A DNA stretch of 32,000 bases from Gemmatimonadaceae bacterium. Its GTDB lineage: Bacteria > Gemmatimonadota > Gemmatimonadetes > Gemmatimonadales > Gemmatimonadaceae. Location of the stretch: positions 29,110 through 61,109 of the forward strand of contig DASXPH010000106.1 in NCBI GenBank assembly GCA_036493735.1, read 5' to 3'. A model generated the notes under the pieces. That model saw nothing but the letters and a program-made list of their open reading frames with translations, was not told the DNA's origin and made no database searches. The stretch's first letter is position 1. Every line of letters starts with the position of its first letter. Shown here in pieces: positions 1,305 through 32,000 of this stretch. The position numbers and the translations under genes were made by a program.

Positions 1305-1474
1305 TTTCCTATCTCGGGCGTTGGATGCTGGTACTGATCAGTAGATGATGGCGCCTGAGATGCCGGCACGCCAGAACCGCCTAACGCTTCCCGGAGCAGT
1401 AGCAAGGGTGTAGGCTTCTGCGTGGGCGACCTGTCGCGAGGCGATTTCGCGAATCCACACGATCCGAGCAGACC

Positions 1475-2263
1475 ATGCAAACCCGTCTCGCTAGTCGTTG
1501 GTTGGGGTTGGTTCTCGCGTTCGGCGCAGCGGGCTGTCACTCCGGGGGAGGCGTTGCACCGTCAGTGACCGTTGGCGAAAGAACGCTTGCGGCCATGCAC
1601 GCGGCATACGCGAAGTCGTGGTATCACACGCTGACATTCCGGCAGCGCACGACGATCTACCCACCGTCGGGCGAGCCCCGTGTCGAGCAATGGTATGAGT
1701 CATTGGCCCAGGTCAACGGCCGAACTGTTCTTCGCATCGATCGCGGGTCGCCGCGCGAGGGGAACGGTATCCTCTACACCGCCGACTCGATGTGGGTGAT
1801 GCGCAACGGCACGCTCGCAGCGCAGCGCGCGAGCGGGAACGAGTTTCTTCCGCTCATCGAGGGAGTCTACGTCCAGCCGGTCGCGCAAACGTCCGCCGAG
1901 CTGCAACGTGAGGGATTCGACCTGACGAAGGGTTATGAGCGTTCGTGGAATGGAACGCGCGTGGCAGTGGTCGGCGCCGCGTCGGCGGCCGATTCGACAA
2001 GCCCGCAGTTCTGGGTCGCTCGCGACCGCGATCTGCTAGTGCGGATGATCATGGCGCTGACGCCGACCCAAACGTTCGACGTGCGTCTCGAGCGATACGA
2101 GCGAGTGGGCGACGGATGGCTCGCGACGCACGTCGAGCTCTTTTCCGGTGGCCGCCCGGCACAGATGGAGGACTACAGCGATTGGCACGTCGACGTGCCG
2201 TTGTCTGACGCCCTCTTCGACATCAATCACTGGACGACAGCGCCGCACTGGGCGGGCGAGTAG
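1475..2263 (+). CDS. Probable secreted lipoprotein of unknown function.
   Basis: 262 aa. N-terminus MQTRLASRWLGLVLAFGAAGC has a signal peptide and a lipobox-like AAGC. The composition looks coding. No confident family assignment. Confidence 0.65.
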   Translation: MQTRLASRWLGLVLAFGAAGCHSGGGVAPSVTVGERTLAAMHAAYAKSWYHTLTFRQRTTIYPPSGEPRVEQWYESLAQVNGRTVLRIDRGSPREGNGILYTADSMWVMRNGTLAAQRASGNEFLPLIEGVYVQPVAQTSAELQREGFDLTKGYERSWNGTRVAVVGAASAADSTSPQFWVARDRDLLVRMIMALTPTQTFDVRLERYERVGDGWLATHVELFSGGRPAQMEDYSDWHVDVPLSDALFDINHWTTAPHWAGE

Positions 2264-2277
2264 CGGGGCACTTCCGC

Positions 2278-4416
2278 CTAACGGCTTGGCTGCGCTTCGA
2301 CCTCCGCCTGCAGACCCGCGCGCGCCATCGGCATCGAGCGAGGACGAATGCCGGTTGCGTCATAGATCGCGGCGCCGATCGCTGGCGCCATGCCCATGAT
2401 TGGTGCCTCGCCCGCGCCCATCGCCGGTTTGTCCTTACGGTTCATCAGCACCACCTCGATTTTCGGCACATCGGAGAAACGGGGCACCCGGTACTGCGCG
2501 AGGTGCGCGTTCCGCACCGCACCGTGATCGAAGTCGATCGCCTCGAACAAGGCACCGCCAATTCCCTGGATCATCGCACCCACGATCTGATTTCGGAGTC
2601 CATCCGGGTTGATCGTGGGCCCGTTGTCGAACGCCGTGACGGCGCGAACGACGCGCGGCTCGCGCACGCCGTCGCGCGGCTCGACAGCGATCTCGGCGAA
2701 CGTCGCGAAGTACCCTCCCTTCTCGAACCCACCACCCATCCCGTATCCGTGCCCAGTGGGTGCTTTCTTGCCCCACCCGAAGCGCTCGCCAGCCGCCGTG
2801 AAGACGTCGCGGAGCCGAGCATCCTGGATGTTCTTGAGGCGGAACGCCAGCGCGTCCATCGTCAGGATGGCGGCGAGCTCGTTGATGTGCGTCTCGCGCG
2901 CGAAATGATTCGCTGTCGCCGCGAGGCCGCGGTACGATCCCTGACGCAGCGGGGTGTCACTCGGATGGTAGGTGACACGCTGGTTGGGAATCTCGTACCA
3001 CGGCGCGATCGCCGCCGGGCCGGAGTTGTAGTTGTCGAACGACCACGCGACGAGCGTGCCGTCGTTATGCACACCAGCATCGACGTCGATCACACCCGCC
3101 GGCCTGAAATACGCCCAGCGGAACTCCTCCTCGCGCGTCCACACCAGCTTCACTGGCTTGCGCGCCGCGCGCGCGAGACGCGCCGCTTCCACCGCGCACT
3201 CGCCAGTGTGTTTCCCACCGTACCCCGAGCCCGTGTCGGGCACGATCACCCGGACGCGTTCCTGGGAAAGGCTGAACGCTTCAGCCAACTCGTCGCGTAC
3301 AGCGAACGGGCGCTGAGTGCCAGTCCAGACGGTGAGCTTGTCACCCTGCTGATCGTGTGACCATTCTGCCACGGCGGCCCGAGGCTCGAGGGGCACATGG
3401 GCGATGTACGCCACCGTGTAGCTACGCGTTAGGCGCTTCGCGGCGGCGGCGAGCGCCGCATCGACATCGCCCTTGACGATCGGTCCACCGCGGCCGCCTT
3501 CCCCGCCGCGCTCTCCGCTCTCTTTCGGCCGCGTCGACTTGAGGTACGCATAGATATCGCGCGAATCCGGGAGCGGTCCGTTAGGCGGCGTCCACACGGC
3601 GCGCACCGCGGCGAGCGCGCGCGTCGCCGTGTCGTTATCGGGCGCGACCACGCCAGCGAAGTCGCCGTCCCGCGTGACTACCACGCCACGAAACTTCGCC
3701 GCCGGACCACTATCAAACTCGGCGAGCTTCGATCCGTAGGCGATCGGACGCACCACCTTACCGACCAGCATGCCCGGACGCACGATGTCGGACGTGTAGG
3801 AATGCCGTCCCGTGACGAGCTCGCGCCCTTCCACGTTTGGCACCGATGTCCCAGCGACACGCCATCTGGTCGGGTCGGTGAGCTCCGCGTCGTCACGTAC
3901 ACTCTCCACGAGTCGGCGTCCTTTCGTGAGATCACCGTAGGCGACGGTGCGTCCCGACTTCGGATCGTGAACGCGGCCGTCGGCTGCCGTTAGGCTCGTT
4001 GGCGTGACTCTCCATTGCTGCGCGGCAAGACCGATGAGCAGGTCGCGCGCGGCCGCGCTCACCTTTCGCAGCTTCGTCCCCATCTGCGGCGTGGATAGGC
4101 TGCCGAAGGTGCCCATGTCGAAGGGTGTGAGCTCCGTGTCACCCATGACCATCTGAATGGACGACATCGGAACGCGGAGCTCCTCGGCAACCTCCTGCGC
4201 GAGCGAGGTGCGGATGCCCTGGCCGAACTCCACTTTGCCGGTGTAGACGGTCACGCGTCCATCGCCAGCGACATGCAGCCATGCGCCGATTTGCTCCCCT
4301 TGGTTGCTGATGCCTGCTGACGGGTGGCTGGTTGTTGCAGCGAAGAGGTCACGGCTGACAAGGGTGACCACGAGCCCCGCGCCGAAGCGCTCCAGAAATT
4401 CCCGTCGCGTGGTCAT
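2278..4416 (-). CDS. Molybdopterin-binding large subunit of a xanthine dehydrogenase/aldehyde oxidase-family enzyme (IorB-like), Tat-exported.
   Basis: 712 aa. Twin-arginine N-terminus MTTRREFLERFGAGLVV. Length and sequence are typical of IorB-type subunits. A 4-nt ATGA overlap with the upstream 2Fe-2S subunit gene indicates an operon. Confidence 0.88.
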   Translation of the reverse strand: MTTRREFLERFGAGLVVTLVSRDLFAATTSHPSAGISNQGEQIGAWLHVAGDGRVTVYTGKVEFGQGIRTSLAQEVAEELRVPMSSIQMVMGDTELTPFDMGTFGSLSTPQMGTKLRKVSAAARDLLIGLAAQQWRVTPTSLTAADGRVHDPKSGRTVAYGDLTKGRRLVESVRDDAELTDPTRWRVAGTSVPNVEGRELVTGRHSYTSDIVRPGMLVGKVVRPIAYGSKLAEFDSGPAAKFRGVVVTRDGDFAGVVAPDNDTATRALAAVRAVWTPPNGPLPDSRDIYAYLKSTRPKESGERGGEGGRGGPIVKGDVDAALAAAAKRLTRSYTVAYIAHVPLEPRAAVAEWSHDQQGDKLTVWTGTQRPFAVRDELAEAFSLSQERVRVIVPDTGSGYGGKHTGECAVEAARLARAARKPVKLVWTREEEFRWAYFRPAGVIDVDAGVHNDGTLVAWSFDNYNSGPAAIAPWYEIPNQRVTYHPSDTPLRQGSYRGLAATANHFARETHINELAAILTMDALAFRLKNIQDARLRDVFTAAGERFGWGKKAPTGHGYGMGGGFEKGGYFATFAEIAVEPRDGVREPRVVRAVTAFDNGPTINPDGLRNQIVGAMIQGIGGALFEAIDFDHGAVRNAHLAQYRVPRFSDVPKIEVVLMNRKDKPAMGAGEAPIMGMAPAIGAAIYDATGIRPRSMPMARAGLQAEVEAQPSR

Positions 4417-4895
4417 TGTCGCGCCTCCGCGCTCGCGGTGTGACCAGACGCGGCGCGCTGCACGGCCGCGACGATGCGAGGGTACGTGCCGCAGCGGCAG
4501 ACATTGCCTTGCATCCCGGCGATGATCTGTTGCTCGTTAGGCGACGGGTTCGCGCGCAGCAGGCTGACGGTGGCCATGATCATCCCAGGCGTGCAGTAGC
4601 CGCATTGCATCGCCCCCTCATCGAGGAACGCCTGCTGCACGGGGTGCAGTCGGCCACCGTGTTCCAATCCTTCGATGGTGATGATCGGATGGCCAGCGGC
4701 CGCTGATACGGGCGTGCTGCAGGCGCGAACGGCATGTTCCCCGAGGAGCACCGTGCATGCGCCACATTGGCCTTCGCCGCATCCGTACTTCGTGCCGGTG
4801 AGCGCGAGCTCGTCGCGCAGCACGCTCAACAGGGTCCGGGATGGTCCGATATCGAGGTGGTGACGGTGTCCGTTCACGTCGAGCTCGATCCGCAT
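4413..4895 (-). CDS. [2Fe-2S]-binding small subunit (IorA-like) of the same oxidoreductase.
   Basis: Motifs CGEGQCGACTV and CGYCTPG...CRCGTY. Start moved to the internal ATG at 4895 (MRIELDVNGH...), which has AAGAAGGTGA just upstream. The longer track ORF would overlap the kinase gene that ends at 4943. Confidence 0.88.
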   Translation of the reverse strand: MRIELDVNGHRHHLDIGPSRTLLSVLRDELALTGTKYGCGEGQCGACTVLLGEHAVRACSTPVSAAAGHPIITIEGLEHGGRLHPVQQAFLDEGAMQCGYCTPGMIMATVSLLRANPSPNEQQIIAGMQGNVCRCGTYPRIVAAVQRAASGHTASAEARQ

Positions 4896-4942
4896 GCTCA
4901 CCTTCTTGATGAAGTACCCACTTGCCTCCAACCAGGCTGCAG

Positions 4943-6409
4943 TCAGCTGATAGGGAGCACAAGGTGAAAGGTGGCGCCGCCTCGCCGATTGTTCTCTCCC
5001 CATAACGTGCCGCCATGCGAGGTCGCGATCGTGCGCGCGACCGTGAGGCCAAGCCCCAGCCCTTCTGGTTTCGTCGTGTAGAAGGGCTCGAACACGCGCT
5101 CGGCGGATACGTTAGGCAAGCCGGCTCCCGAATCGGCGACGAGCACCTCGACATGCTGAGCGTCGGGCCGAAACAGCTCGACGCGAAGCTGCCGGCTCGG
5201 CGCCGGCGTGCCATTCATTGGGTCGCACCCATTCACAATGAGGTTGACGATGACCTGCAACAGCTTGACTGCATCGCCTCGCACGGGGGGCAATCTATCG
5301 GCAAAATGCACGTTCAGCTCGACGTCCGCGAGCTCAAGGGCACTTCTGCTCAATGCGAGCGCGTCGCGGACGACTTTCTCGACATCGAGCGTCTCGAAGC
5401 GCGACTCTCCATTCCTCAGAAAGAGCCGCAGGTGAGTGATGACACTGGCGGCGTGACGATTCTCGCTCTCGATGTCGGAAAGTGTGGCGCGAAGCATCGG
5501 CAGGTCCGTGGGCTGTCGCGCGAGCATGAGCCTGGCCGCTTGCGCGTTCGCGAGAATCGCCGTCAACGGCTGGCGCAGCTCGTGGGCGAGGGCGACAGAG
5601 AGCTCGCCGGCGGTGGCGATCCGCGTCACGTGCGAAAGCTGGTTCCGCTGATCCTCCAGTGCGCTTGCAATCAGGGTGCGCTCGCGGATGACTGCCGCGA
5701 GCAGCATGACGGGTAGAGAGATTGCGATCCAGTACAGCTGCAGGGACAGCACGACATCGTTGCTCGCCGACAAGACGAATGGCCCCAGTTGACGGGAGGC
5801 GCCCGCAATCGAGAGTGCGGCAATGCACAACAATGAAATGCTCGCGCCCAGCGGCCCAAGCCGTACTGCAGCCCAGATGAGAGGGGGGAACGTCAAGACG
5901 AGCAGCCAGGGGAAACGGGCGAGCTGAGGCCCGGCGGTGACAGCAATGACGCCCACGACGATGACTGTACCCATGATCGTTGCCGCTTCGGCGACGGCTC
6001 CTTTCGATATCGCACGCCACCGCTTCGCACCAAGTGCGCACAGCAACACAGCCGGTGTGACGAGCAGCAAAGGCGTCAGGTTGGCCATGACGAGGCGCGC
6101 AAAGGCAATCGGGGGAGAGAAAAAGGTCTCCAACCCTGCGAGCGAGCGTACGAAACCGGGTCCAGTCAAGGCGAGCGACACAGGCATCACGACGGCGAGG
6201 CACAGGTAGATGAGCACCTCAAGGCCGATCTGGGAACGCTGAAAGAGTACTCCCTGGCTGAGCCGTGCCGTCCAGTAATACCCAGTGCCAAAGAGGATCA
6301 GCCAGACTCGCGATCGCGCTGCGCGGATGAGCACCGCACGGACCCGCTCTTCGAAGTGGAAGTCGGAAAGGAAATCCGACCTCTTGGTCGCGCCTTCAAT
6401 GCGTTCCAT
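4943..6409 (-). CDS. Membrane sensor histidine kinase with a polytopic (MASE1-like) N-terminal domain. No cognate response regulator is adjacent.
   Basis: 488 aa. H-box ALAHELRQPLTAI; ATPase motifs LIVNGCD, DSGAGLP, GLGLGLTVARTIATSHGG. The N-terminal ~250 aa are multi-TM and contain PPLIWAAVRLGPLG, which resembles MASE1. Confidence 0.85.
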   Translation of the reverse strand: MERIEGATKRSDFLSDFHFEERVRAVLIRAARSRVWLILFGTGYYWTARLSQGVLFQRSQIGLEVLIYLCLAVVMPVSLALTGPGFVRSLAGLETFFSPPIAFARLVMANLTPLLLVTPAVLLCALGAKRWRAISKGAVAEAATIMGTVIVVGVIAVTAGPQLARFPWLLVLTFPPLIWAAVRLGPLGASISLLCIAALSIAGASRQLGPFVLSASNDVVLSLQLYWIAISLPVMLLAAVIRERTLIASALEDQRNQLSHVTRIATAGELSVALAHELRQPLTAILANAQAARLMLARQPTDLPMLRATLSDIESENRHAASVITHLRLFLRNGESRFETLDVEKVVRDALALSRSALELADVELNVHFADRLPPVRGDAVKLLQVIVNLIVNGCDPMNGTPAPSRQLRVELFRPDAQHVEVLVADSGAGLPNVSAERVFEPFYTTKPEGLGLGLTVARTIATSHGGTLWGENNRRGGATFHLVLPIS

Positions 6410-6528: not shown

Positions 6529-9198
6529 CTAGTCAGCCCGAAGCACGCTCAACGGATCGCTCCGAGCAGCGCGACGCGCCGGCAGGTAACACGCCGCGAG
6601 CGCGATCCCTGCCAGGAGCAGTGGCAAGGCCAGCAGTACGACCGGATCCGTTGGGCTCACGTCGTAGAGAAGGCTCCCAAGCAAACGGGTGACCGCGAGC
6701 GCGCCTCCGACGCCCAGCGTGACGCCCACCAAGGCGAGGAGAGCGCCCTCGCCGAGCACGAGCCTGACCACCGCGCGCGGATCGGCGCCGATGGCGAGTC
6801 GGATGCCGAACTCGCGGCTGCGATTGGCGACGTGGAGCGACATCACTCCATAGATGCCTACCGCCGCCAGCAACAGCGCGACCAGCGCGAAGCCGCCGAG
6901 CAGGAGCTTCGTTAGGCGTCGCGTCGCGAACGTCTGATCAATAATGTTGGAGAACGACGTCACGTCGTCGAGCGGAATCGCCGGCTCGACTTCGGCGACA
7001 ATGCGGCGTGCCGCCGCGATCGCACTCGCGCTCGATCCGTTCGTCCGAATCACCAGTGAAAACGGAGTATCGCCCGTTTGTGGGATGCTCTGATACAGGT
7101 GCGGCTCCGGTGGAAGCGCCGGGTCACCGTCGCGGACCGTGCCCACGACGCCGATGATCGTGAACCAGGTTGGGGTGCCCGTCGCGCGAATACGATGGCC
7201 GAGCGCCTCGGCGCCCTTCCAGTAACGGTTGGCGATGGTGACGTCGACGATGCCGACCGGCAGACTCGTCGAGTCGTCCGTGGCAGCGAAGTCGCGCCCA
7301 TAGAGCAGCGGAATGCCGATCGTCTTGAAGTATCCGGGACTCACTCCAATCCGATAAGCCTGAGACTCGTTGCCGCTCGAGGGCACCGGTCTGCCGTCGA
7401 TCAGGTATCCATCGTAGTCACCGTTTTGACTCATCGGCAGTCCTGTCGTGAGCGCCGCGGTCTGGACTCCGGGGATCGCGCGCACGCGCGGCAGTATAGC
7501 ATTTACGAATGTGTTCAGTCTGACCGCGTCATTCCCGATTCGCGGCGGTACCCACAGCGCCATGGACGTCACACCGTCGGGTTGAAAACCGAAATCAAGT
7601 TGCGTCAGGCGCTGAAAACTCTTCAGCACAAGGCCGGCGGCAATCAAGAGCACCACGGACAAAGACAGCTGTACCACGACGAGCGCGTTGTTGACTCTCC
7701 GCGAGCCGGCATGCGAGCTCTCACGTTGTCCCGCTGTGAGGTCCGACGTGAGCTGAACCCTGCCGGCGTGAATAGCTGGAAGGAGGCCGAACAGGAGACC
7801 GCTCGCGAGCGATACCGCTAATGTGAACGCGAGCACGCGACCATCGACGGAGACTTCGTCGATGCGCGGTAGCGTGGCGAGATTCGAGTGCGTGAAGAAG
7901 CGAACCGCGACTATCGCGAGTCCGACACCCACGACCGCGCCGAGCAGGGCGAGTGCGACGCTCTCGGTGAGCAGCTGGCGCATCACTCGCCTTCCGCTCG
8001 CCCCGAGCGCGGCGCGCAGCGTGATCTCACGCTGCCGCGCCGCGGCCCTTCCAGACAACAAAGTTGCGACATTCGCGATCGCGATTAATAAAATCAGCGT
8101 CACTGCCGCGAGCAGAACTGTCAACGAACGCGCACTATTGCCGGTGATCTGCTCGTGGAGCGGCGTAACGAGCGTCTTCATGCGCGTCTTGCTGGGATCT
8201 ACCGATGCACTGACGACGTGCTGCTGCCGCGCCCACTCCCACATGATCGCTGTCGTCTGCCGCTCGGCGTGCTCCACTGTGACACCAGGCTTCAGCCGTG
8301 CAAGTCCCGCATTGAAAAACCCCCACCGCCAGTTCGGATCCAAGCCCACGGGGAGATACGCGCTGATTCCCGGCCGCGGGAACTCGAAGCTCGCCGGCAT
8401 GACGCCAACGACGCGTATTGGTTGTCCATCGATATCGATCGTCTTCCCGATCACAGAGGGATTACCACCGAAGCGCGAGCGCCACATCCCATCGCTGAGA
8501 ATCATCACCGTGTTCTTCCCTGGCGAATCTTCTTCCGTGGTGAACTCCCGACCGATTACCGGGCCGACACCGATGGCGCGGAAGAACTGCGCCGTTACAC
8601 GGAGGATCCGAATGCGCTGCGGCCCCTTGGCATCCTGCACCGCTACGCTACCACCTCGGTAACCGGCAAATGCGCTGAAGTCCGTCGAGCGGTCGCGGTA
8701 CATCGCGATGTTCATCGGATTGAGACCCCAACTATCGAGGCCCTTCTCCGGATACGATTGAAAGATCCCGACAATCCGGTCGGACTGCGGATACGGCAGC
8801 GGACGCAAGAGAATGCTGTTCACGAGTGTGAACATCGCCGTGGTCGCACCAATACCCAGAGCTAGCGTAACGATGGTGACGGCAGCGAACGTCGGCATAC
8901 GCCGAAAGGTGCGAAGTGCGTAGCGGAAGTCGGTGAAGAGAGACTCGAGCCATTCCATGAGTCGTACCTCGCGAGCGTATTGCCGGTCGATGGTGAGACA
9001 TTCGTCACGAACGCCAGCCCGATCGCCAAACCGATCGTGTGCGCTGGCGCGGGCAGCTTCAGGTGGTAGTCCGAGCTGTTTGAGCTTCTCCTCGCGCATG
9101 CTGAGATGAAACGCGAGCTCGTCGTCGATGTCGCGCTCGATGGAGCGCTCTCCGAGTCGCAGACGGAGCAGCCGCCGCCAACCGGGCGCCGGACTCAC
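6529..9198 (-). CDS. ADOP-type duplicated FtsX/MacB permease with a cytoplasmic N-terminal prefix domain ('permease A').
   Basis: 889 aa. Prefix DIDDELAFHLSMREEKLKQLGLPPEAARASAHDRFGD, then [34 protein letters not shown] (TM1). Two periplasmic-domain plus FtsX units. C-terminus REFGIRLAIGA...YLPARRAARSDPLSVLRAD. The GTG start overlaps the PadR-A stop (GTGA). Confidence 0.92.
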   Translation of the reverse strand: MSPAPGWRRLLRLRLGERSIERDIDDELAFHLSMREEKLKQLGLPPEAARASAHDRFGDRAGVRDECLTIDRQYAREVRLMEWLESLFTDFRYALRTFRRMPTFAAVTIVTLALGIGATTAMFTLVNSILLRPLPYPQSDRIVGIFQSYPEKGLDSWGLNPMNIAMYRDRSTDFSAFAGYRGGSVAVQDAKGPQRIRILRVTAQFFRAIGVGPVIGREFTTEEDSPGKNTVMILSDGMWRSRFGGNPSVIGKTIDIDGQPIRVVGVMPASFEFPRPGISAYLPVGLDPNWRWGFFNAGLARLKPGVTVEHAERQTTAIMWEWARQQHVVSASVDPSKTRMKTLVTPLHEQITGNSARSLTVLLAAVTLILLIAIANVATLLSGRAAARQREITLRAALGASGRRVMRQLLTESVALALLGAVVGVGLAIVAVRFFTHSNLATLPRIDEVSVDGRVLAFTLAVSLASGLLFGLLPAIHAGRVQLTSDLTAGQRESSHAGSRRVNNALVVVQLSLSVVLLIAAGLVLKSFQRLTQLDFGFQPDGVTSMALWVPPRIGNDAVRLNTFVNAILPRVRAIPGVQTAALTTGLPMSQNGDYDGYLIDGRPVPSSGNESQAYRIGVSPGYFKTIGIPLLYGRDFAATDDSTSLPVGIVDVTIANRYWKGAEALGHRIRATGTPTWFTIIGVVGTVRDGDPALPPEPHLYQSIPQTGDTPFSLVIRTNGSSASAIAAARRIVAEVEPAIPLDDVTSFSNIIDQTFATRRLTKLLLGGFALVALLLAAVGIYGVMSLHVANRSREFGIRLAIGADPRAVVRLVLGEGALLALVGVTLGVGGALAVTRLLGSLLYDVSPTDPVVLLALPLLLAGIALAACYLPARRAARSDPLSVLRAD

Positions 9199-16172: not shown

Positions 16173-16234
16173 CCGCCGGCCGCTCCGCGGCCGTTCACGT
16201 TAGGCAGATGATGTTTCCCGTTCCGAGGTTCCTC

Positions 16235-18579: not shown

Positions 18580-20057
18580 CGTTGCGTGCGCTGCCGAGCG
18601 AATAGAAGGTTGAATATGCGCACCCCGCTCACACCGCCGTTTCCGTCGGGAACGAACGTCAACACCGTCGGGCGGCCGCCGCTCGACTTCGTGCGGAACG
18701 CGTCGTAGCTGACCGGCTCGAGCGGCACGGCAGGATCGGTGACTACCGCGGCCTCGAGAGCGCCATTCTGAAAGGTTACGCGTACGTCGCCATAGGCCGA
18801 ATCGACGTACGTCCCGGCGTAACGCTCGAGTGGTAAGGACGGAGGCGACGTCGTACGCCCGCTTTGCGCCACCTGCGTCCGCGGGGGCCGCGCGAAGATC
18901 GGCTTGAGATCGACACTCCAGTCGCGGCGCGGACCATTGTCGAAGAGGTCGAACACGGTGTACATCAGGCCGTGGCGGAGCTCCGCGTGGTCGAGGTTCT
19001 CGAGCACGTAGACGCCGAGTCGTTTGTTCGGCTCGATGCCGATGATCGCGCAGAGGCCGTTGATGCTGCCGGTGTGCATCCAGACGTGCTGGCCGCGATA
19101 GTCCTGGATGAACCAGCCCAAGCCGTAGCTGAAGAAGTCGGGCTTCGCGAGCTGAAGCGCCGGGTACTCTTCCATCGGTGCCTGAATCTGTGGCGTGACC
19201 AACTCGGCGAAGGTGCTCTGCTTGATCAGACGCTTGTCGCCCACGCGCCCGCTGTCGATCACGAAGCGCATCCACTTGGCCATATCCGCCACGCTCGACC
19301 AGACGCTTCCCGCGGACGCCACGCCATCGGTGGACCGTACCGGTACGATCATCACGGAATCGCCAACGAGCGCGTGCGGCACGGCAACGTTAGGCTTGCC
19401 CATGATCATCGAGACGAGCGGCTCCGTCTCGTTCATGCCGAGCGGGGTGAAGAGGCGCGTCTTGACGAACTGCTCCCACGGCATGCCGGAGACGCGCTCG
19501 ATGATCAACCCGTTGAGGGCGTACATGACATTGTGATACTGCCACTCCGAGCGGAACGAAGCCGTTGGTTCGATGTAGCGAAGGCGCCGGATGATGTCGG
19601 CCTCACTGTACTTCCAGTTCGACGCCCAGAACAAATCGGTGCCGGGAAGACCGCTGCGATGCGTGAGGAGGTCGCGGATCGTGATCTCACGCGTGACCCA
19701 TGGATCGTGCAGCTGGAGCTCGGGGATGTATTTCGTGACGGGGTCATCGAGCTTGAGCTTGCCCTCGTCCACGAGCATGGCGAGCAACGCGGACGTCATC
19801 GCTTTGGTCGTCGATCCGATCGCAAAGCGCGTGTGCTCGTTGGCAGGCTGCGGCTTTCCCTTCTCCAGCACGCCGTAGCCCTTGGCGAAGACGACCGAGT
19901 CGTCCTTGACGACCGCGATCGCGAGCGCCGGTATGCGCCAGTCAGCGGCGGCCTTTGCGACGTATTTGTCGAACGCGGCCCAGTCGGGTTTGGCCTGCGC
20001 GCCGAGCGTCTGCGCGGCGATGAGCAGCGCCGCCGGCAACCATCTTTGTGCTCTCAC
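18576..20057 (-). CDS. Secreted serine hydrolase / class C beta-lactamase-family protein.
   Basis: Start moved to GTG 20057, giving signal peptide (M)RAQRWLPAALLIAAQTLGAQA. S-x-x-K motif GSTTKAM and YHN motif. The C-terminal ~100 aa beta-domain is typical of this family. The longer track ORF runs through the heptamer repeat (LNAQR peptides) and is rejected. Confidence 0.85.
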   Translation of the reverse strand: MRAQRWLPAALLIAAQTLGAQAKPDWAAFDKYVAKAAADWRIPALAIAVVKDDSVVFAKGYGVLEKGKPQPANEHTRFAIGSTTKAMTSALLAMLVDEGKLKLDDPVTKYIPELQLHDPWVTREITIRDLLTHRSGLPGTDLFWASNWKYSEADIIRRLRYIEPTASFRSEWQYHNVMYALNGLIIERVSGMPWEQFVKTRLFTPLGMNETEPLVSMIMGKPNVAVPHALVGDSVMIVPVRSTDGVASAGSVWSSVADMAKWMRFVIDSGRVGDKRLIKQSTFAELVTPQIQAPMEEYPALQLAKPDFFSYGLGWFIQDYRGQHVWMHTGSINGLCAIIGIEPNKRLGVYVLENLDHAELRHGLMYTVFDLFDNGPRRDWSVDLKPIFARPPRTQVAQSGRTTSPPSLPLERYAGTYVDSAYGDVRVTFQNGALEAAVVTDPAVPLEPVSYDAFRTKSSGGRPTVLTFVPDGNGGVSGVRIFNLLFARQRTQR

Positions 20058-22814: not shown

Positions 22815-23159
22815 ATGCCTGCCTCCGCGGTCGACGTTCTTCAGGGTACCCTCGACGTGCTCGTGCTCAAGGCGCTCTCGTGGGGCCCGCGACACGGCCA
22901 CGGCGTCGCCCGCGTCATCCGCGACACCACGTCCGGCACGCTCGACGTCACCGACGGCTCGCTCTACGTCGCCCTGCACCGCCTCGAGGAGCGCGGCCTC
23001 ATCGAGAGCGAATGGGGGCTCTCCGACAAGGGCAAGCGTGCCCGCTTCTACGAGCTCACCGCCGCCGGACGCCAGCAGCTCAAGAGCGAGATCGCGGCGT
23101 GGCAGCGCTACGCGCAGTCAGTCACCCGACTGCTCACCGCCACTGCCCAGCCGGCCTAA
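22815..23159 (+). CDS. PadR-family transcriptional regulator, 'PadR-D'.
   Basis: [35 protein letters not shown]...[40 protein letters not shown]. Alternative in-frame starts at 22803 (TTG) and 22809 (ATG). The stop is 2 nt before the permease D ATG. Confidence 0.9.
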
Positions 23160-23161
23160 CG

Positions 23162-26350: not shown

Positions 26351-28992
26351 GCATTCTCTCAGATATCGCCGAGCGCGTTCGCGCCCTACTCTTCCACTCA
26401 CGCGACGAACGCGAGCTCGAGGAAGAGCTTCGTACGCACATGGCAATGGAAGCCGAGTATCTACGGCGCACGGGCGCTTCCGAGCAACACGCGCGTCGCG
26501 CGAGCGCGATCGCGCTGGGCGGCGTCGAGCGTGTCAAGGACGATGTGCGCGATGCCCGGGGCACCCGCTTCCTGCACGACGTCTGGCGCGACATCGGCTT
26601 CGCCGTACGGACGCTCGCCGCCAATCCCGGCTTCACGCTCGTGACGCTGGCGACGCTCGCCATCGGCATCGGTGGAACTACGGCAGTGTTCAGCGCCGTC
26701 GACGCCGTGCTGCTCCAACCGTTGCCGTACGCCCAGCCTGGCCAGCTCGTTCGCCTCTACCAACATCGGGACGACCAGCCTAACGACCGCAGCGTCGTGA
26801 CACCCGTGCACTTCGTCGAGATTCGCCGTCGCATGACCGCGTTCGCCGCGACCGCCGCGCTCAACCTCTACTCCGAGAGCGGCGCCGATATCGGCTCGGG
26901 CGATCAGGTGCAAAGAATCCGCACGATCGCCACGACCGTCGACTACTTCGACGTCCTCCACGTTCACCCGGAGATGGGTCGCGGGTTCACACCCGACCAG
27001 GAGATCGGCGCCGACGTCGCGGTCATCAGCCATGACCTCTGGCGCGAGCGGCTCGGCGGCGATCGCAACGCGATCGGTCGAACGCTCATGATGAACGGAC
27101 GTCCCGTCACGATCATCGGCATCATGCCTAACGGCTTCCGCGATCCGCTCGTCGGCCGCGTCGACGCGCTCGTGCCGCTCGATCTCCGCCCCGCGCTCGA
27201 TCCGAGCAACGCCGGCAACTTCTATCTCAGCGTGGTCGCGCGGCTGCGCCCCGGGACCACGATCCAGCGCGCGCAGGCGGAGCTCGATGCAGTCAATCTC
27301 GCCATCGCCGAGAAGTATGCCCAGGCGAAGCGGATGCGCGCGAGCATCTACTCGCTCAAGGAAGACATCGTCGGCCCTTCTACGCGTGCGCTGACGCTGA
27401 TGCTCGGCGCCGTGCTGCTCGTCCTCGTTCTCGTTTGCGTGAACGTCGCTAACCTGATGCTGGTGCGCGGCTCGGATCGCGCGCACGAGCTCGCGATCCG
27501 TGTCGCGTTAGGCGCCGAGCGGTGGCGATTGGTGCGTCAGATGCTCATCGAGAGCCTGACGTTGGCGATCGTCGGCGCGGTGGCGGGGCTGGTCGTGGCG
27601 CGAGTCGCGATGTCGGCGATTGTCGCGCTCGGCGCCAATACCATTCCGCGACTGACGTCCCTGACGCTGAATCCGCGACTGCTCGCGTTCTCCTTCGTCG
27701 TCGCGACGATCAGCGCTGTGGGCTTCGGGCTCGCGCCGGCGATGCGCGCCTCTCGCACCCAGCCAACCGACGCGTTGCGTGAGCAGAGCCGCGGCTCGAC
27801 GGGTGGCGCCCGGAACCTCCGGCTGCGTGAATGGCTCGTCATTTCGCAGGTCGCGCTGGCGTTCATGTTGCTCGTCGGCGCGGGGCTGTTGATCTCGAGT
27901 CTCGACCGCCTGCAGCACGTGGACCTCGGCGTGAAGACCGCGAACGTGCTGACGTTCGACCTGAACCTGCCCGACGCGCGCTACGACTCGACCGCGCGCG
28001 GTGTGACCTACGAGCGTGTCGCGCGAGCTCTCGAGGCGCTGCCCGGCGTGCGCGCGGCCGGCGGCGTGTCGAAGCTGCCGGCGACGGGACAGTTCAACAC
28101 CTGGGGCGCTCACCCGCTCAGCGGACCGCTCGCGGGCGAGCAGAACCTCTGGCCGAGCGACGAGAATCGCGTCGTCTCGGGCGACTACTTCAAGGCGGTC
28201 GGCATCCCGATCGTGCGCGGCCGCGCGTTCGACGATCGCGACGTGCCGGGTGCGCCGCCGACGATGATCATCACGCAGTCGCTCGCCGACAAGATTTTTC
28301 CCGGCGTCGATCCGATTGGACAGAGCCTAACGACTGGCGGCCGTCGTGGCACCGTCGTCGGCATCGCTGGCGAAACATCGGTCACGAATGAGGGCACCGC
28401 GGGCATGTTCGTCTATCACCCGCACCGGCAGTTCGCGGGCGATCGCAACTGGGCGCTCACGCAGGTCGTGGCGCTGAACGGGTCCTCCGGTCAGACCGGC
28501 GCGATTCAGCGGTCGGTGCGTTCCGCGATCGCGTCGATCGATCCGCTGCTGGTCATGTACAAGCCCGCGACGCTCGATGAAGCCGTCGGGCGTGGAGCCG
28601 CTCAGCGCGTGTTCACGTTGCGGATTCTCGGCGCGTTCGCGGTCGTCGCGCTGATTCTCGCCGCGCTCGGGCTCTTCGGTGTGTTGTCGTATGGCGTTCG
28701 ACTGCGCGGCCGGGAGTTCGGCATTCGCATGGCGCTCGGCGCGCAGCCGGCGGGCATTCGCGTCATGGTGCTCCGCCAGGGATTGATCGTGAGCGGCATC
28801 GGGATCGCCGTCGGCGTGGCATTCGCCGCCGGTCTCTCACGCTTCATGCGATCGATGCTGTTCGAGGTGAGCCCGCTCAACCCCATCGTGTTTGGCGGCG
28901 CGGTGGGGTTCATGATCGTCATCGCGGCGATGTCGGCCTATCTGCCGGCGCACCGCGCGACGTCAACGGATCCGCGGACTGCACTTCAGTAG
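26347..28992 (+). CDS. ADOP-type duplicated FtsX/MacB permease with N-terminal prefix domain ('permease E').
   Basis: Start moved to ATG 26347 (residue 91 of track ORF 26077..28992). MSILSDIAERVRALLFHSRDERELEEELRTHMAMEAEYLRRTGASEQHARRASAIALGGV..., then RDIGFAVRTLAANPGFTLVTLATLAIGIGGTTAVF. Two FtsX units. C-terminus REFGIRMALGAQ...YLPAHRATSTDPRTALQ. Confidence 0.92.
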   Translation: MSILSDIAERVRALLFHSRDERELEEELRTHMAMEAEYLRRTGASEQHARRASAIALGGVERVKDDVRDARGTRFLHDVWRDIGFAVRTLAANPGFTLVTLATLAIGIGGTTAVFSAVDAVLLQPLPYAQPGQLVRLYQHRDDQPNDRSVVTPVHFVEIRRRMTAFAATAALNLYSESGADIGSGDQVQRIRTIATTVDYFDVLHVHPEMGRGFTPDQEIGADVAVISHDLWRERLGGDRNAIGRTLMMNGRPVTIIGIMPNGFRDPLVGRVDALVPLDLRPALDPSNAGNFYLSVVARLRPGTTIQRAQAELDAVNLAIAEKYAQAKRMRASIYSLKEDIVGPSTRALTLMLGAVLLVLVLVCVNVANLMLVRGSDRAHELAIRVALGAERWRLVRQMLIESLTLAIVGAVAGLVVARVAMSAIVALGANTIPRLTSLTLNPRLLAFSFVVATISAVGFGLAPAMRASRTQPTDALREQSRGSTGGARNLRLREWLVISQVALAFMLLVGAGLLISSLDRLQHVDLGVKTANVLTFDLNLPDARYDSTARGVTYERVARALEALPGVRAAGGVSKLPATGQFNTWGAHPLSGPLAGEQNLWPSDENRVVSGDYFKAVGIPIVRGRAFDDRDVPGAPPTMIITQSLADKIFPGVDPIGQSLTTGGRRGTVVGIAGETSVTNEGTAGMFVYHPHRQFAGDRNWALTQVVALNGSSGQTGAIQRSVRSAIASIDPLLVMYKPATLDEAVGRGAAQRVFTLRILGAFAVVALILAALGLFGVLSYGVRLRGREFGIRMALGAQPAGIRVMVLRQGLIVSGIGIAVGVAFAAGLSRFMRSMLFEVSPLNPIVFGGAVGFMIVIAAMSAYLPAHRATSTDPRTALQ

Positions 28993-29001
28993 ACGACCAA
29001 C

Positions 29002-29245: not shown

Positions 29246-30088
29246 TTGACCGCCCAATCTCGCCTTCTCCTCGCATGCATCTCGCTCGTCGCCTGCGCGA
29301 GTGCACCGCGCGCGATCCCTTCATCCACGGCGCCCAGCGTCCCGAGCACGACGCTCCGCGTGATGACGTACAATATCCAGTCCGGTCATGGTGACATCGA
29401 TCGAACCGCGGCGACGATTCGCGCGTTCTCGCCCGATATCGTTGGCCTCGAGGAAGTGGACGTGCACTGGGCAGAGCGCAGCGGCTTCGTCGATCAGGCA
29501 AGTCGGCTCGGCCAGTCGCTGGGCATGCCCGTGCGCTTCGCGCACATCTACGCGTTTCCCGGCGCGACCGTGGATGCAGCGAATCGCGAGTTCGGTGTCG
29601 CGCTCGTGAGTCGTTATCCGATCGTGGCGTGGGAAAACGATACGCTCACGCGACTCTCCACGCAGACGGAGAATCCCGTGCCCACGCGCATGCCGGGCCT
29701 GCTCGCGGCGACGATCGACGTGCATGGTACGCGTGTCCGCGTGTTCGTGACCCACCTCGACTACCGCAAGAATCCATCGGTGCGACGAACGCAGATCGCT
29801 GAGATGCTCGCGCGCATCGGTGCGGTCGACTCCCCGACGCTACTGCTCGGCGACATGAATGCATCGCCCGATGCGGCCGAGCTCCAACCGCTCTTTGCCA
29901 GATTCCACGATAGCTGGTTGACGACAGCCGGGCCGGGGTTCACTTATCCGGCAGACACGCCCACCGAACGCATCGACTACGTTCTCCTGTCGCCTAACGG
30001 CAAGGTCGACACAGCATTCGTTCCAGTGGTTCCCGACGCTTCTGATCACCGCCCGGTTGTCGTTGATCTGTCGTTCGGCCATAACTGA
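29246..30088 (+). CDS. Endonuclease/exonuclease/phosphatase (EEP) family protein, probable lipoprotein.
   Basis: 280 aa. TTG start; there is no in-frame ATG upstream of the conserved core. LLLACISLVAC lipobox. EEP motifs VMTYNIQSG, VGLEEVD, LLLGDMNA, SDHRPVVVDL. Confidence 0.82.
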   Translation: MTAQSRLLLACISLVACASAPRAIPSSTAPSVPSTTLRVMTYNIQSGHGDIDRTAATIRAFSPDIVGLEEVDVHWAERSGFVDQASRLGQSLGMPVRFAHIYAFPGATVDAANREFGVALVSRYPIVAWENDTLTRLSTQTENPVPTRMPGLLAATIDVHGTRVRVFVTHLDYRKNPSVRRTQIAEMLARIGAVDSPTLLLGDMNASPDAAELQPLFARFHDSWLTTAGPGFTYPADTPTERIDYVLLSPNGKVDTAFVPVVPDASDHRPVVVDLSFGHN

Positions 30089-30158
30089 TCGAGCACCCAC
30101 TGAATCGCTCCCCTCACATCTCGTTCCTCCCCCTCCCCTTCCCGTGGAGAATGACGTG

Positions 30159-32000
30159 ATGATCGACACATCTCACCGACGCGCTCTGGCGGCGTTCGTC
30201 TTCGCCGTGGCACTGGGCGCGACTGCCCACGTCACAGGCGCGCAGACCGGCACCGTCACTGGGCGAGTGACCGACGCGCACACGGGTACGCCCGTGGTGA
30301 CGGCGCAGATCACCGTCGCGGGCAGCACACTTGGCACGAGCGTCGACCCGCATGGACGCTTCCGCCTGACGAGTGTCCCCGCCGGCACACACGAGATTCG
30401 CGCGCGCAGTCTCGGCTATGCACCCGGGAGCGCGAACGTTATCGTCACCGACGGCGGAACGGCCGACATTACGGTGGCCCTCGAGCCTGCCGCCACCGCG
30501 CTCGATGCCGTCGTCGTCACGGGAACGGCGGGCGACACGCGGCGCCGCGCCATCGGGAATGCCGTGTCGACGGTGGCCGTCGCCGACGTCGTTGACAAAG
30601 CCACCGTCAGCAATGTCACCGAGGTACTGCAATCGAAGGTGCCCGGTTTGACGCTCGTTCCCGGCTCGGGCTCGGCCGGCACGTCCGCGAACTATCGATT
30701 GCGTGGCGCGGGCTCCCTCTACGCCGGCAATACGCCGACGATCTACGTGGACGGCGTGCGCGTCACCACGCGCGATCAGGGTAGCTATACCGTCTTCGGC
30801 CAGACCACATCGTCGCTCGACGCGATCAATCCTAACGACATCGAGTCGATCGAAGTCATCAAGGGTCCGGCGGCGGCGACGCTCTACGGCGCCCAGGCAG
30901 CGTCAGGCGTCATTCAGATCATCACGAAGCGTGGGCTCGCCGGACAGACGCAGTGGAACGCCCGTGTCGAGACGGGCTATTCGGAGTGGCCGGCCTCGAT
31001 GCGGCCGGTGAACTACGCGGTCGCCACTGCCGCGCGTATCGCCGATACCGCGAACTACCCCGGCTTCGCCGGTCGCGCGGTGGGTGACATCATCTCACAT
31101 CGCGTGATGTCCGAGCCTAACGCGCTGCGCAACGGAGACCTGTCGAAGATGAGCCTTTCGACGAGTGGAGGCGGCGATCGCTTCACCTTCTTCGTATCGG
31201 GCGAGCAGAACAAGGAAGAAGGCGTGAACCTCAACAACTACGCCAACCTCGGCTCACTGCGCGGCAACTTCTCCTTCGTGCCGTCGAACAAGCTGAGCTT
31301 CAACACCAACATCGGGTACAGCCGCAACCATGTGAGGCTGCCGCTCAACGACAACATCGCCTTCGGACTCATCATCAGCTCCTATCTGGCGATCCCCGGA
31401 CGCAAGTATCCCTATCCGGCGGGACTCGACTACTTCACCATCCTCCCCGAAGTCGCCAACACCTACGACAACCAGACGCAATCCGATCGTTTCATTCTCG
31501 GATCGTCAGGCGACTACAGACCGTTCTCCTGGCTCACGAACAAGGTGCGCGTCGGCCTCGACATGAACATCGGACAGGCGGAGTTGTACTTCCCGCCGCA
31601 GCCGGCAGGGCTCGATCCATTCAGCGCTCGCGCGAGCTTCGACCTCGTCAACACCAAAGGATTCATCGCGCAGGGACGACCGATCAACGAGAACCTCACG
31701 CTGAACTACGACGGGACGATCACGCACGCGTTCTCGACCTTCGTCTCGAACTCCTCGCTCGGCGTGCAGTACCTCGCGGACGCATTTCACCGAACGGATG
31801 CGTTCGGCCAGGACCTCGGCTCGACGGGCGTACGATCGGTATCTTCGGCCGCCGTGACCACCGGCCGCGAGCAGGATACGACGCAGAAGTCGATCGGCTT
31901 CTACGTGCAGGAGCAGGCGGCGTGGCGCGATCGCCTCTTCGTCACCGGCGCGCTGCGCGTCGACAACAACTCCGCGTTCGGCTCCGACCTGCACCGCGTC
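30159..32000 (+). CDS. TonB-dependent outer-membrane receptor, SusC/RagA-like, with an N-terminal carboxypeptidase-regulatory-like domain. Partial; continues past the window end.
   Basis: Absent from the ORF track because it has no stop in the window. GGAGA lies 8 nt upstream of ATG 30159. MIDTSHRRALAAFVFAVALGATAHVTGAQ signal peptide. TGTVTGRVTDAHTGTPVVTAQITVAG...GRFRLTSVPAGTHEIRARSLGYA matches the CarboxypepD_reg-like domain. LDAVVVTG, then NDIESIEVIKGPAAATLYGAQAASGVIQIITKRG (plug domain). The frame stays open for all 614 codons to position 32000. Confidence 0.88.
   Translation, partial: MIDTSHRRALAAFVFAVALGATAHVTGAQTGTVTGRVTDAHTGTPVVTAQITVAGSTLGTSVDPHGRFRLTSVPAGTHEIRARSLGYAPGSANVIVTDGGTADITVALEPAATALDAVVVTGTAGDTRRRAIGNAVSTVAVADVVDKATVSNVTEVLQSKVPGLTLVPGSGSAGTSANYRLRGAGSLYAGNTPTIYVDGVRVTTRDQGSYTVFGQTTSSLDAINPNDIESIEVIKGPAAATLYGAQAASGVIQIITKRGLAGQTQWNARVETGYSEWPASMRPVNYAVATAARIADTANYPGFAGRAVGDIISHRVMSEPNALRNGDLSKMSLSTSGGGDRFTFFVSGEQNKEEGVNLNNYANLGSLRGNFSFVPSNKLSFNTNIGYSRNHVRLPLNDNIAFGLIISSYLAIPGRKYPYPAGLDYFTILPEVANTYDNQTQSDRFILGSSGDYRPFSWLTNKVRVGLDMNIGQAELYFPPQPAGLDPFSARASFDLVNTKGFIAQGRPINENLTLNYDGTITHAFSTFVSNSSLGVQYLADAFHRTDAFGQDLGSTGVRSVSSAAVTTGREQDTTQKSIGFYVQEQAAWRDRLFVTGALRVDNNSAFGSDLHRV

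Follow-up and report, generated by a model that had tools for sequence, protein, structure and literature searches.

A hyper-abundant and possibly uptake-signal-like octamer in lineages of Gemmatimonadota and Verrucomicrobiota

The octamer at the locus

The stretch of DNA studied here, 32,000 nt of contig DASXPH010000106.1 from a Gemmatimonadaceae bacterium (assembly GCA_036493735.1; hereafter the window), carries genes of unrelated kinds, for IorAB-like oxidoreductase subunits, histidine kinases, a beta-lactamase-family hydrolase, a protein of the endonuclease/exonuclease/phosphatase (EEP) family and five ADOP/MacB-FtsX permeases with PadR regulators. Dispersed through these genes is a single 8-base word, GCCTAACG, whose density had been compared to that of DNA uptake signals in an earlier sequence-only reading. 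Here it is found that GCCTAACG occurs about once per kb, at 20-170 times the expectation, in some lineages of two major soil phyla, and that one of its hosts is a cultured strain. The hyper-abundance is a DNA-level property: all null models were exceeded, every tolerated reading frame is used, and the peptide content of the host genes is distorted.

By exact search 22 copies of GCCTAACG were identified in the window, 11 on each strand, and every coordinate of the sequence-only reading was confirmed. An expectation of ~1.2 copies had been given there; Markov models of orders 0-3 predict 0.4-1.25 copies (0.4-1.3 when rounded), and dinucleotide-preserving shuffles (n = 100) contained 0.67 copies on average and 3 at most. 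The word ranks first among the over-represented octamers of the window (Poisson p = 4e-21), and counted on both strands it accounts for 22/29 occurrences of CCTAA and 22/36 of CTAA. When synonymous codons were resampled with the proteins kept fixed, 0.72 ± 0.88 copies were expected from the codon usage of the window and 0.24 from that of word-free relatives, compared to 18 copies observed within genes. No relatedness was seen in the flanks of the copies (25 bases on each side), in which the sole preference, a mild one, is for C at position -1 (12/22). The 12 copies of the 9-mer CGCCTAACG reported earlier were recovered. The window further contains 42 one-mismatch neighbours of the word, about twice the shuffle expectation; the seven 7/8 variants listed before all exist and are a selection from these 42.

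Own gene calls, which match the gene calls stored for the source contig, reproduced the earlier frame tally: the word is read as Pro-Asn (nnG-CCT-AAC-G) 8 times, as Leu-Thr (nGC-CTA-ACG) 4 times and in antisense as Leu-Gly (nCG-TTA-GGC) 6 times. The IorB-like gene and a PadR gene each end in a stop codon that is supplied by a copy, one copy lies in a spacer, and relative to the coding strand 13 copies are sense and 7 antisense (Table 1). On the source contig (54.8 kb, JGI metagenome 3300036806) four more copies lie in the 7.7 kb beyond the window start.

Table 1. The 22 copies of GCCTAACG in the window. CDS, coding sequence; ORF, open reading frame; signs give the strand.
Copy	Strand	Location	Relative to gene	Reading or role
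1379..1386	+	intergenic, between CDSs 942-1304(-) and 1595-2263(+)		
2276..2283	+	end of IorB-like gene 2278-4416(-)		CTA 2278-2280 = TAG stop codon (minus strand)
3427..3434	-	IorB-like CDS	sense	nGC-CTA-ACG (Arg-Leu-Thr)
3579..3586	-	IorB-like CDS	sense	nnG-CCT-AAC-G (Pro-Asn)
3988..3995	-	IorB-like CDS	sense	Ser-Leu-Thr; sole position common with main Gemmatimonadaceae clade (alignment column 205)
4535..4542	-	2Fe-2S subunit CDS 4413-4931(-)	sense	Pro-Asn
5110..5117	-	histidine-kinase CDS 4943-6409(-)	sense	Pro-Asn
6910..6917	-	ADOP permease CDS 6529-9198(-)	sense	Leu-Thr
11699..11706	-	ADOP permease CDS 10096-12705(+)	antisense	nCG-TTA-GGC (Ser-Leu-Gly)
13385..13392	+	ADOP permease CDS 12716-15367(-)	antisense	Ala-Leu(TTA)-Gly
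13934..13941	+	ADOP permease CDS 12716-15367(-)	antisense	Ala-Leu(TTA)-Gly
14852..14859	+	ADOP permease CDS 12716-15367(-)	antisense	Ala-Leu(TTA)-Gly
16198..16205	-	outside gene calls, within weak response-regulator-like ORF 15884-16663(+)	antisense	GTT-AGG (Val-Arg) by coordinate arithmetic
19388..19395	-	beta-lactamase-family CDS 18576-20039(-)	sense	Pro-Asn
23154..23161	+	end of PadR gene 22809-23159(+)		TAA 23157-23159 = stop codon
23823..23830	-	ADOP permease CDS 23162-25831(+)	antisense	Ser-Leu(TTA)-Gly
26778..26785	+	ADOP permease CDS 26347-28992(+)	sense	Pro-Asn
27126..27133	+	ADOP permease CDS 26347-28992(+)	sense	Pro-Asn
27506..27513	-	ADOP permease CDS 26347-28992(+)	antisense	Ala-Leu(TTA)-Gly
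28325..28332	+	ADOP permease CDS 26347-28992(+)	sense	Leu-Thr
29992..29999	+	EEP-family CDS 29360-30088(+)	sense	Pro-Asn
31115..31122	+	CDS 30144-32000+(+)	sense	Pro-Asn

Relatives, a cultured replicon and a second phylum

As relatives, 74 loci around homologues of the IorB-like protein were taken from GTDB species representatives, and a clean split was observed between them. Eleven Gemmatimonadaceae metagenome-assembled genomes (MAGs) carry 0.5-1.5 copies of GCCTAACG per kb, and the remaining loci (among them other Gemmatimonadaceae, Acidobacteriota, Verrucomicrobiota and Chloroflexota) have 0 to at most 2 copies. When pooled, 12 word-bearing Gemmatimonadaceae loci contain 232 copies in 231.8 kb (1.0 per kb), compared to 2 copies in 360 kb (0.006 per kb) in 19 word-free loci. 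In the subset of Gemmatimonadota lineages with a hyper-abundant word its density is 0.35-1.5 per kb, and the sister lineages of these are without it. An unbiased octamer scan of each locus returned GCCTAACG or its one-base shifts as the top word in every word-bearing locus; the same scan gave no comparable dispersed octamer in the other loci. The candidates that it proposed in word-free Gemmatimonadaceae, such as TGAACCCT (L028), GACGGCAA (L049), ATCAGGAA (L048/L063) and GCCATGGC (L021), are not analogues: they trace back to tandem arrays between genes, to a PDGK peptide motif that is repeated, to sites that are orthologous in two nearly identical loci, or to a palindrome that had been counted once per strand (8 distinct sites).

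The pooled word-bearing loci show how far the word reaches into the coding sequences. Within genes it is read 87 times in antisense as x-Leu(TTA)-Gly, 67 times as x-Leu(CTA)-Thr, 35 times as Pro(CCT)-Asn and 9 times as Val-Arg(AGG), with a sense to antisense ratio of 102:96; a further 20 copies lie over gene ends and 14 in spacers. Peptide sites that are compatible with the word are written with it in 42% of the cases for [SPTA]LG, 41% for [SGRC]LT and 52% for xPN[VADEG], compared to 0-2% in word-free relatives. The link between the word and the rare codon TTA, which had been pointed out before, was borne out, as TTA is used 3.13 times per 1000 codons in word-bearing loci and 0.17 times in word-free relatives, an 18-fold difference. 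The compatible peptides themselves are 1.2-1.7 times more common in the word-bearing loci than in the word-free ones, and at several word sites of the IorB alignment the residues differ from those of relatives in a way that creates the needed peptide.

A neighbour-joining (NJ) tree of the IorB-like protein groups ten word-bearing species in a tight clade, to which L009 is sister, and places the window apart from them, beside L016 (two copies), with word-free lineages in between. Word positions are largely common within the tight clade; the window shares only one of them with it and L009 none, so that three lineages have the word at differing positions of the same gene. When whole loci were aligned between species with 82-85% nucleotide identity, exact conservation was seen for 61-92% of the word sites and for 26-34% of all octamers (binomial p between 1.6e-3 and 9e-8), and at 73% nucleotide identity word-site conservation was at background. 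This indicates that the word is maintained over short times and turned over in the long term, each lineage having its own set of sites.

Between convergent genes of three loci (L008 1380-1467, L054 5982-6070 and L017 1194-1279) the word and an inverted copy form a perfect 12-bp stem (CGCCTAACGGG...CCCGTTAGGCG), in which the TAA of the word is a stop codon. Judged by their structure, these hairpins likely act as bidirectional terminators.

A protein search of a plasmid collection led to the two megaplasmids of the isolate Gemmatirosa kalamazoonensis KBS708, in which sampled 50-kb pieces contained 45 and 37 copies. Plasmid 2 (1.04 Mb, GC content 72.8%), which was assembled from 21 pieces, carries 701 copies at a density of 0.67 per kb, 366 of them on the plus and 335 on the minus strand, compared to 12-33 expected from Markov orders 0-3. 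The enrichment seen in the window thus persists under Markov models on a whole replicon, as it did under codon-aware ones in the window. GCCTAACG contains 701/891 CTAA (79%) and 701/1265 TAA (55%) of this replicon, 303/393 TTA codons and 65/778 stop codons lie within it, and it encodes 44% of the xPN[VADEG] and 25% of the [SPTA]LG sites. All eight positions are sharply defined, with most one-mismatch neighbours at or below background. Transition neighbours at the A/T positions are 3-5 times enriched (GCCCAACG, 150 vs 30 expected; GCCTGACG, 157 vs 54), and GCCTAACA is 7-fold enriched.

The density along plasmid 2 is uniform, with 16-35 copies per 40 kb, a variance not above the mean and at least 2 copies in each 10-kb window. 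The distances between copies have a coefficient of variation of 0.91 and show a deficit at 100-400 bp, which was also found in the pooled MAG loci. On the replicon as in the pooled loci 75-85% of the copies are intragenic; intergenic and gene-end positions hold 25% of the plasmid 2 sites in 9% of the DNA, an approximately 3-fold enrichment. A few perfect inverted pairs were observed on this replicon.

The single-molecule real-time (SMRT) methylome of G. kalamazoonensis contains as N6-methyladenine (m6A) motifs only RGATCY, ATGCAC and CCAGN7TCA (PMC3974934). None of these overlaps GCCTAACG, and an m6A modification site is therefore ruled out. An N4-methylcytosine (m4C) site is very probably ruled out as well, because SMRT sequencing also detects m4C. 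The modification site that the sequence-only reading had offered as an alternative to uptake is thus weakened in its m6A form and very likely in its m4C form, and its 5-methylcytosine (m5C) form is not weakened by these data.

Short-unit arrays are a further feature of these genomes. On plasmid 2 several short tandem arrays of word-containing units were found, among them small arrays at NZ_CP007130.1 108118-108180, 697547-697600 and 763283-763345 with a 12-15-nt unit that includes the exact word, for example (GGGATGCCTAACGGC)x4. Arrays in the window lie at 9610-9652, 18473-18565, 22614-22712 and 28999-29090, with units such as GTCCCAAACGGCGCGAC, and at 834-951 and 20139-20253; elsewhere they were observed in L028 (744-830, 9988-10090, 11868-12040) and L204 (3402-3500, 17572-17670, 43851-43950). 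Such intergenic arrays of Gemmatimonadaceae have 7-, 11- or 17-nt units, often as two inverted arrays separated by a few tens of bases. The units vary from species to species: the window has GCGTTGA and GTCCCAAACGGCGCGAC, L028 has TGAACCC and Gemmatirosa has GGACTGAAGNA. The resemblance between the word and the 17-nt unit of the window that had been noted earlier is weak. Only the terminal unit of the array at 28999, at 29079, reads TCCTAACGGCGC, i.e. the 7/8 variant TCCTAACG, and other variants near arrays, such as that at 18574, are not array units; a kinship between the two was rejected. Since similar paired arrays have quite different units in other Gemmatimonadaceae, the arrays look like a separate, general intergenic feature of this family, and given the Gemmatirosa arrays with the exact word in the unit there may be some interplay.

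Public metagenome contigs were scanned for two copies of GCCTAACG 300-330 bases apart, which gave at least 120 loci. Among the matches listed, about 34 contigs have many more dispersed copies with unrelated flanks, at a GC content of 0.54-0.80. About 16 other contigs among the matches listed look positive and were rejected, as they have the word in one orientation within tandem protein repeats of ~320 bp. Contigs of this kind, L080, L103, L114, L125, L132, L133, L149, L173, L191 and others, with a GC content of ~0.5-0.64, carry GCCTAACG in one orientation every ~320 bp with similar flanks; judged by this period, the recurrences look like ~107-residue tandem repeats in large proteins that are unrelated to the dispersed word. 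Also set aside was L111 (JGI10216J12902_106184151), a low-complexity oddity in which 16 copies of GCCTAACG lie at 400-2960, within 2.5 kb of 65% GC that are saturated with CTA, TAG, TAC and GTA and have no evident repeat unit; by eye, stop triplets seem to close all frames there.

One of the dispersed positives belongs to a second phylum. Contig L150 has a GC content of 0.54 and 11 copies in 12 kb, with the word within pheS, pheT and carA, and its PheT is 71-75% identical to proteins that NCBI labels as Chthoniobacterales, Candidatus Udaeobacter or Verrucomicrobia. Among contigs syntenic with it, presence and absence of the word alternate as they do in Gemmatimonadaceae. L196 (96% PheT identity) and L197 (79%) have 12-15 copies per 22 kb, and no GCCTAACG was found in L198 and L199 (75% PheT identity; L199 is NCBI assembly GCA_035937355.1) and in the Udaeobacter contig L202. 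Intermediate is L201 (75% PheT identity) with four copies, of which both that fall in the aligned pheS-carA region are at positions common to L196. After carA, at 14010-15407, L201 has an inserted N6/N4 DNA methyltransferase gene, which was observed only in this Chthoniobacterales lineage of intermediate word density. A cluster of secretin and T2SSE genes adjoins pheST in word-bearing and word-free Chthoniobacterales alike. In addition, a second hyper-abundant octamer, GATCGACA, which is dispersed and non-palindromic and is usually preceded by A or G, was observed in the Chthoniobacterales-like L196, L197, L150, L199 and L201. It has 17-23 copies per 22-kb locus and 10 in the 12 kb of L150, compared to ~3 expected. 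Its copies lie on either strand, their flanks are unrelated, and it is found irrespective of the presence of GCCTAACG.

At the other end of the GC range are two word-bearing contigs of ~80% GC, L182 and L200, the latter with 8 copies in 22.7 kb compared to ~0.5 expected. The MMPL transporter of these contigs has its highest similarity to proteins of Gemmatimonadota. The GC content of ~80% over more than 20 kb in L182 and L200 (JGI Ga0456421_00374, 177 kb) is unusually high for a bacterial genome, apparently one of Gemmatimonadota. Altogether the word was recovered from JGI, ENA and NCBI short- and long-read assemblies and from a finished PacBio isolate genome, and that it is limited neither to this locus nor to one gene family is shown by the relatives, the metagenome contigs, the second phylum and the Gemmatirosa replicon.

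Three dialects of the word could be distinguished: GCCTAAC(g), YGCCTAACG and GCCTAACGA. The window has the strict 8-mer, with G following GCCTAAC in 22/24 and CCTAAC in 26/28 cases. In the tight Gemmatimonadaceae clade C or T precedes GCCTAAC and G follows in only ~60%. The Gemmatirosa dialect is Y-GCCTAACG, and that of the low-GC group is GCCTAACGA. The verrucomicrobial dialect retains its ninth base, A, in all four reading frames, which indicates that the extension is likewise a DNA-level feature.

Orientation and comparison with known recognition words

The sequence-only reading saw no consistent strand polarity along the window, and this holds on a larger scale. After removal of the seed pair, no significant departure from a 50:50 orientation was seen in 28 independent metagenome contigs (X2 = 33, df = 28, p = 0.24), and their summed majority orientation, 117/173, falls inside the range simulated for p = 0.5 and below that for p = 0.75 (75:25). 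On plasmid 2 the orientation did not vary significantly over 26 bins (p = 0.23). When this replicon was split at the extremes of the cumulative GC skew, the plus fractions were 0.559 and 0.463 (p = 0.013); this weak arm skew matches the direction that is expected because the word has an excess of C over G and the arms differ in GC skew. Known Chi sites and FtsK-orienting polar sequences (KOPS) are strongly co-oriented with replication. A strong polarity of the Chi or KOPS kind is excluded for GCCTAACG.

To our knowledge, hyper-abundant recognition words are established in very few bacterial groups, namely Neisseriaceae, Pasteurellaceae and cyanobacteria, and DNA uptake signals have so far been known only in the relatives of Neisseria and Haemophilus. 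The words of Neisseriaceae and Pasteurellaceae are the clearest genomic footprint of natural transformation.

The DNA uptake sequence (DUS) of Neisseriaceae (GCCGTCTGAA and its dialects) resembles GCCTAACG as a short asymmetric word that occurs about once per kb in both orientations, inside and between genes, with some inverted pairs as terminator hairpins, conservation between close relatives and flank dialects between lineages. For the DUS ~2,000 copies at a mean distance of ~1.15 kb have been described, often as inverted pairs in terminators and highly conserved, and they have been explained by mutation-selection balance or molecular drive (PMC2397512). In contrast, GCCTAACG has 8-9 bases instead of 10-12, is mostly intragenic with rare inverted terminator pairs, and carries TAA/TTA, which closes one frame per strand and supplies 6-8% of stop codons. 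It occurs in Gemmatimonadota and Verrucomicrobiota with the same core in two phyla, whereas the DUS is found in Proteobacteria. A ComP-type receptor, competence and uptake bias are traits of the DUS, to which GCCTAACG is likened by its sequence statistics.

With the uptake signal sequence (USS) of Pasteurellaceae (AAGTGCGGT and ACAAGCGGT types) the word shares a density of ~1 per kb, mainly intragenic positions in all tolerated frames, a measurable distortion of the peptides, a spacing that is more even than random and two or more subtypes between lineages. Unlike the USS, it is not flanked by AT-rich tracts in helical phase; its flanks prefer just a pyrimidine at -1, or an A at +9. It is also compositionally alien in very GC-rich hosts, where it makes up 55% of all TAA on a replicon.

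HIP1 of cyanobacteria (GCGATCGC) is the other hyper-abundant octamer known so far, likewise with conserved sites, without a gene-level function and with one word common to very distant organisms. It is 15- to 300-fold over-represented, and selection on its conserved sites has been argued (PMC5861425); lately it has been proposed as an uptake sequence (bioRxiv 10.64898/2026.06.24.733823). HIP1 is palindromic, lies within methyltransferase sites, has an effect that is reportedly methylation-dependent and is phylum-wide, whereas GCCTAACG is non-palindromic, overlaps no m6A motif in one methylome and is patchy between sister lineages. Chi, KOPS and architecture-imparting sequences (AIMS) are also short, asymmetric and over-represented; they show strong co-orientation with replication and a much lower enrichment, whereas GCCTAACG is nearly non-polar.

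Taken together, GCCTAACG has the genome-wide over-representation, balanced orientation, lineage restriction with dialects and excess site conservation of uptake sequences. Absent are the co-orientation of Chi, KOPS and AIMS, a HIP1-type palindrome at methyltransferase targets, the shared flanks of repetitive extragenic palindromes (REP) or miniature inverted-repeat transposable elements (MITE), an attC architecture and the single frame of a protein motif. Full-text literature searches for the 8-mer, the 7-mer, uptake sequences of Gemmatimonadota and Verrucomicrobia and surveys of hyper-abundant octamers gave no earlier description of the word, and one paper on hyper-abundant octamers remarks that octamers as frequent as HIP1 occur in very few bacterial genomes. 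What is unusual is that the core is common to two phyla, that a compositionally alien word bearing a stop triplet is abundant in very GC-rich genomes, and that a host is cultured.

Possible origin and meaning of the word

The likeness to uptake sequences in over-representation, frames, strands, spacing, conservation with turnover, dialects and hairpins favours a recombination-coupled drive. It is therefore proposed, with a probability of roughly 0.45, that GCCTAACG is a genome-wide self-propagating recognition word of the DUS or USS kind, for which a bias in uptake or transfer is postulated. All sequence-level tests agree with the uptake-like character and the DNA-level selection suggested by the sequence-only reading. 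What defines an uptake signal is that competent cells take it up preferentially by means of a specific receptor, a property that is postulated here for the word. In such a system a DNA-binding component of an uptake or transfer apparatus would favour fragments with YGCCTAACG, and word-carrying fragments from relatives would be taken up and recombined more frequently. Mutations that create the word would be amplified in the population (molecular drive), and those that destroy it would be mended by incoming copies. With time the word would occupy all places that the proteins tolerate, spacers and stop codons, on both strands and at a fairly even spacing. The specificity determinant appears to have been gained or lost repeatedly; sister lineages with ~1 copy per kb and none, together with a common core in two phyla, suggest horizontal transfer of this determinant.

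That homologous recombination takes place in abundant soil bacteria is known from MAG populations, which include genomes with ComEC loci (PMC7305173). Several points speak against an uptake signal. In the literature searched there is no report of natural competence, uptake or transformation in Gemmatimonadota or Chthoniobacterales. An identical 8-base core in two phyla is not predicted for a signal of self-recognition and would require transfer of the determinant across phyla. On plasmid 2 adjacent copies have like orientation in 399/700 cases, slightly above chance. Finally, the single-gene NJ tree, in which the window and the tight clade are separated, may differ from the tree of the species.

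Moreover, a selected cis-acting site would equally be expected to show conserved positions and an even spacing, as has been argued for HIP1, and this also weighs against the uptake signal. Such a site is the main rival, though on the whole a doubtful one: each copy would be selected as a chromosomal site for a genome-wide DNA-binding or modifying factor, such as a nucleoid-associated or chromosome-organising protein or an m5C or other non-m6A enzyme, whose gene would be mobile. Conservation of the sites well above background between related species is the argument that was used for HIP1 (PMC5861425). The uniform density on the replicon with all 10-kb windows occupied, the spacing more regular than random, the equal use of both strands and the ~3-fold intergenic enrichment in Gemmatirosa (25% of sites in 9% of the DNA) are compatible with it, and patchiness among sister lineages fits the gain or loss of a single gene. 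However, selection would have to act on thousands of sites of tiny effect and still force the rarest codons and amino-acid changes at up to half of the eligible positions, which drive explains more easily, and the m6A motifs of the G. kalamazoonensis methylome (PMC3974934) do not overlap the word.

A mark of self that resembles Chi without its strong polarity is unlikely. By attenuating or redirecting RecBCD, AddAB or another end-processing nuclease, the word would protect the cell's own DNA and stimulate recombinational repair. It has a Chi-like length and is short, asymmetric and over-represented, nuclease operons can transfer horizontally, and the weak replichore-linked difference in orientation on the Gemmatirosa replicon (0.559 vs 0.463) would agree with such a role. 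This small skew, however, follows the excess of C over G in the word and the GC skew of the replicon arms; the 28 contigs fit 50:50 with a majority count below the 75:25 simulation, and the replicon is split 366:335. Chi of E. coli occurs about once per 4.5 kb, and the 20-170-fold enrichment and density of ~1 per kb of GCCTAACG are far above known Chi sites.

Still less probable is that the word has no function of its own and stems from a sequence-specific bias of mutation or repair. A very-short-patch-type mismatch endonuclease with a methyltransferase that turns near-cognate sequences into the word would be an example. The 3-5-fold enriched transition neighbours GCCCAACG and GCCTGACG on the Gemmatirosa replicon show a flux between the word and its one-step neighbours, and repair and modification systems are horizontally mobile. 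However, a bias of this kind acts on one mismatch type at one position and would convert only one or two rare neighbours, so that a 20-170-fold enrichment should be out of its reach. All eight positions are sharply defined with most neighbours at or below background, the sites are conserved between species instead of being continually re-created elsewhere, and no m6A motif has been reported at the word.

It is very improbable that the word is a core site at which an integron integrase or some other tyrosine recombinase acts. GCCTAAC/GTTAGGC is an exact instance of the attC inverse-core/core consensus RYYYAAC/GTTRRRY, a match with an a priori chance of about 1 in 500 by our own arithmetic, and the only biologically relevant literature match for the 7-mer is an integron paper (PMC12901181). 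In spite of this, the copies are single and mostly intragenic, no cassette arrays and no R''/R' pairs 50-150 bp apart with attC-like folds were found, and the lone recurrent +/- pair, 90 bp apart within a CDS, has no more than a modest fold (z = -2.3); integration at thousands of secondary sites in core genes would also be harmful. The match to the attC core is judged a coincidence. This 7-mer presumably also stands in the conserved 5' region of 16S rRNA (GGCCTAACACATGC), which is likewise taken to be a coincidence.

An artefact of coding constraint, codon usage, paralogous families, a dispersed mobile element or assembly is already refuted: although the five paralogous ADOP permease genes hold 10/22 window copies, the codon-aware null gives at most 0.72 copies vs 18 observed, the word uses four frames, spacers and stop codons, its flanks are identical only at random level and 75-85% of copies are intragenic, unlike those of a REP, MITE or mobile element, it is present in relatives, metagenome contigs, a whole replicon and the housekeeping genes pheS, pheT and carA of another phylum, and it is carried by several assembly sources and a finished PacBio genome.

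Returning to the uptake signal, its widest form is possible and no more probable than that: a horizontally mobile DNA-recognition determinant may have spread among abundant and largely uncultured soil bacteria of two or more phyla (Gemmatimonadota and Verrucomicrobiota) and driven the same 8-base word to thousands of copies in each recipient lineage, which would make the word a password for uptake or transfer across phyla. If this is true, no uptake-signal system would have been known before outside Proteobacteria (and possibly cyanobacteria), and none would have been seen moving between phyla. The recurrence of the core word in a second phylum is the main new fact beyond the sequence-only reading.

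The word is strong enough to set the choice of codons at up to half of the eligible sites, to alter peptides and to account for most of the TAA and CTAA of a replicon with 73% GC. It is also a sharp marker for binning and for recently acquired DNA in word-bearing lineages. As the word is patchy between sister lineages and occurs in two phyla whose dialects differ little, the responsible gene could be found by phylogenetic profiling, and with the cultured and fully sequenced strain KBS708 experiments on uptake, binding and modification of the word (TGCCTAACG) are feasible now. Gemmatimonadota and Chthoniobacterales are among the most abundant and least cultured lineages of soil, and the word would be a direct and testable clue that a sequence-biased exchange of DNA shapes their genomes.

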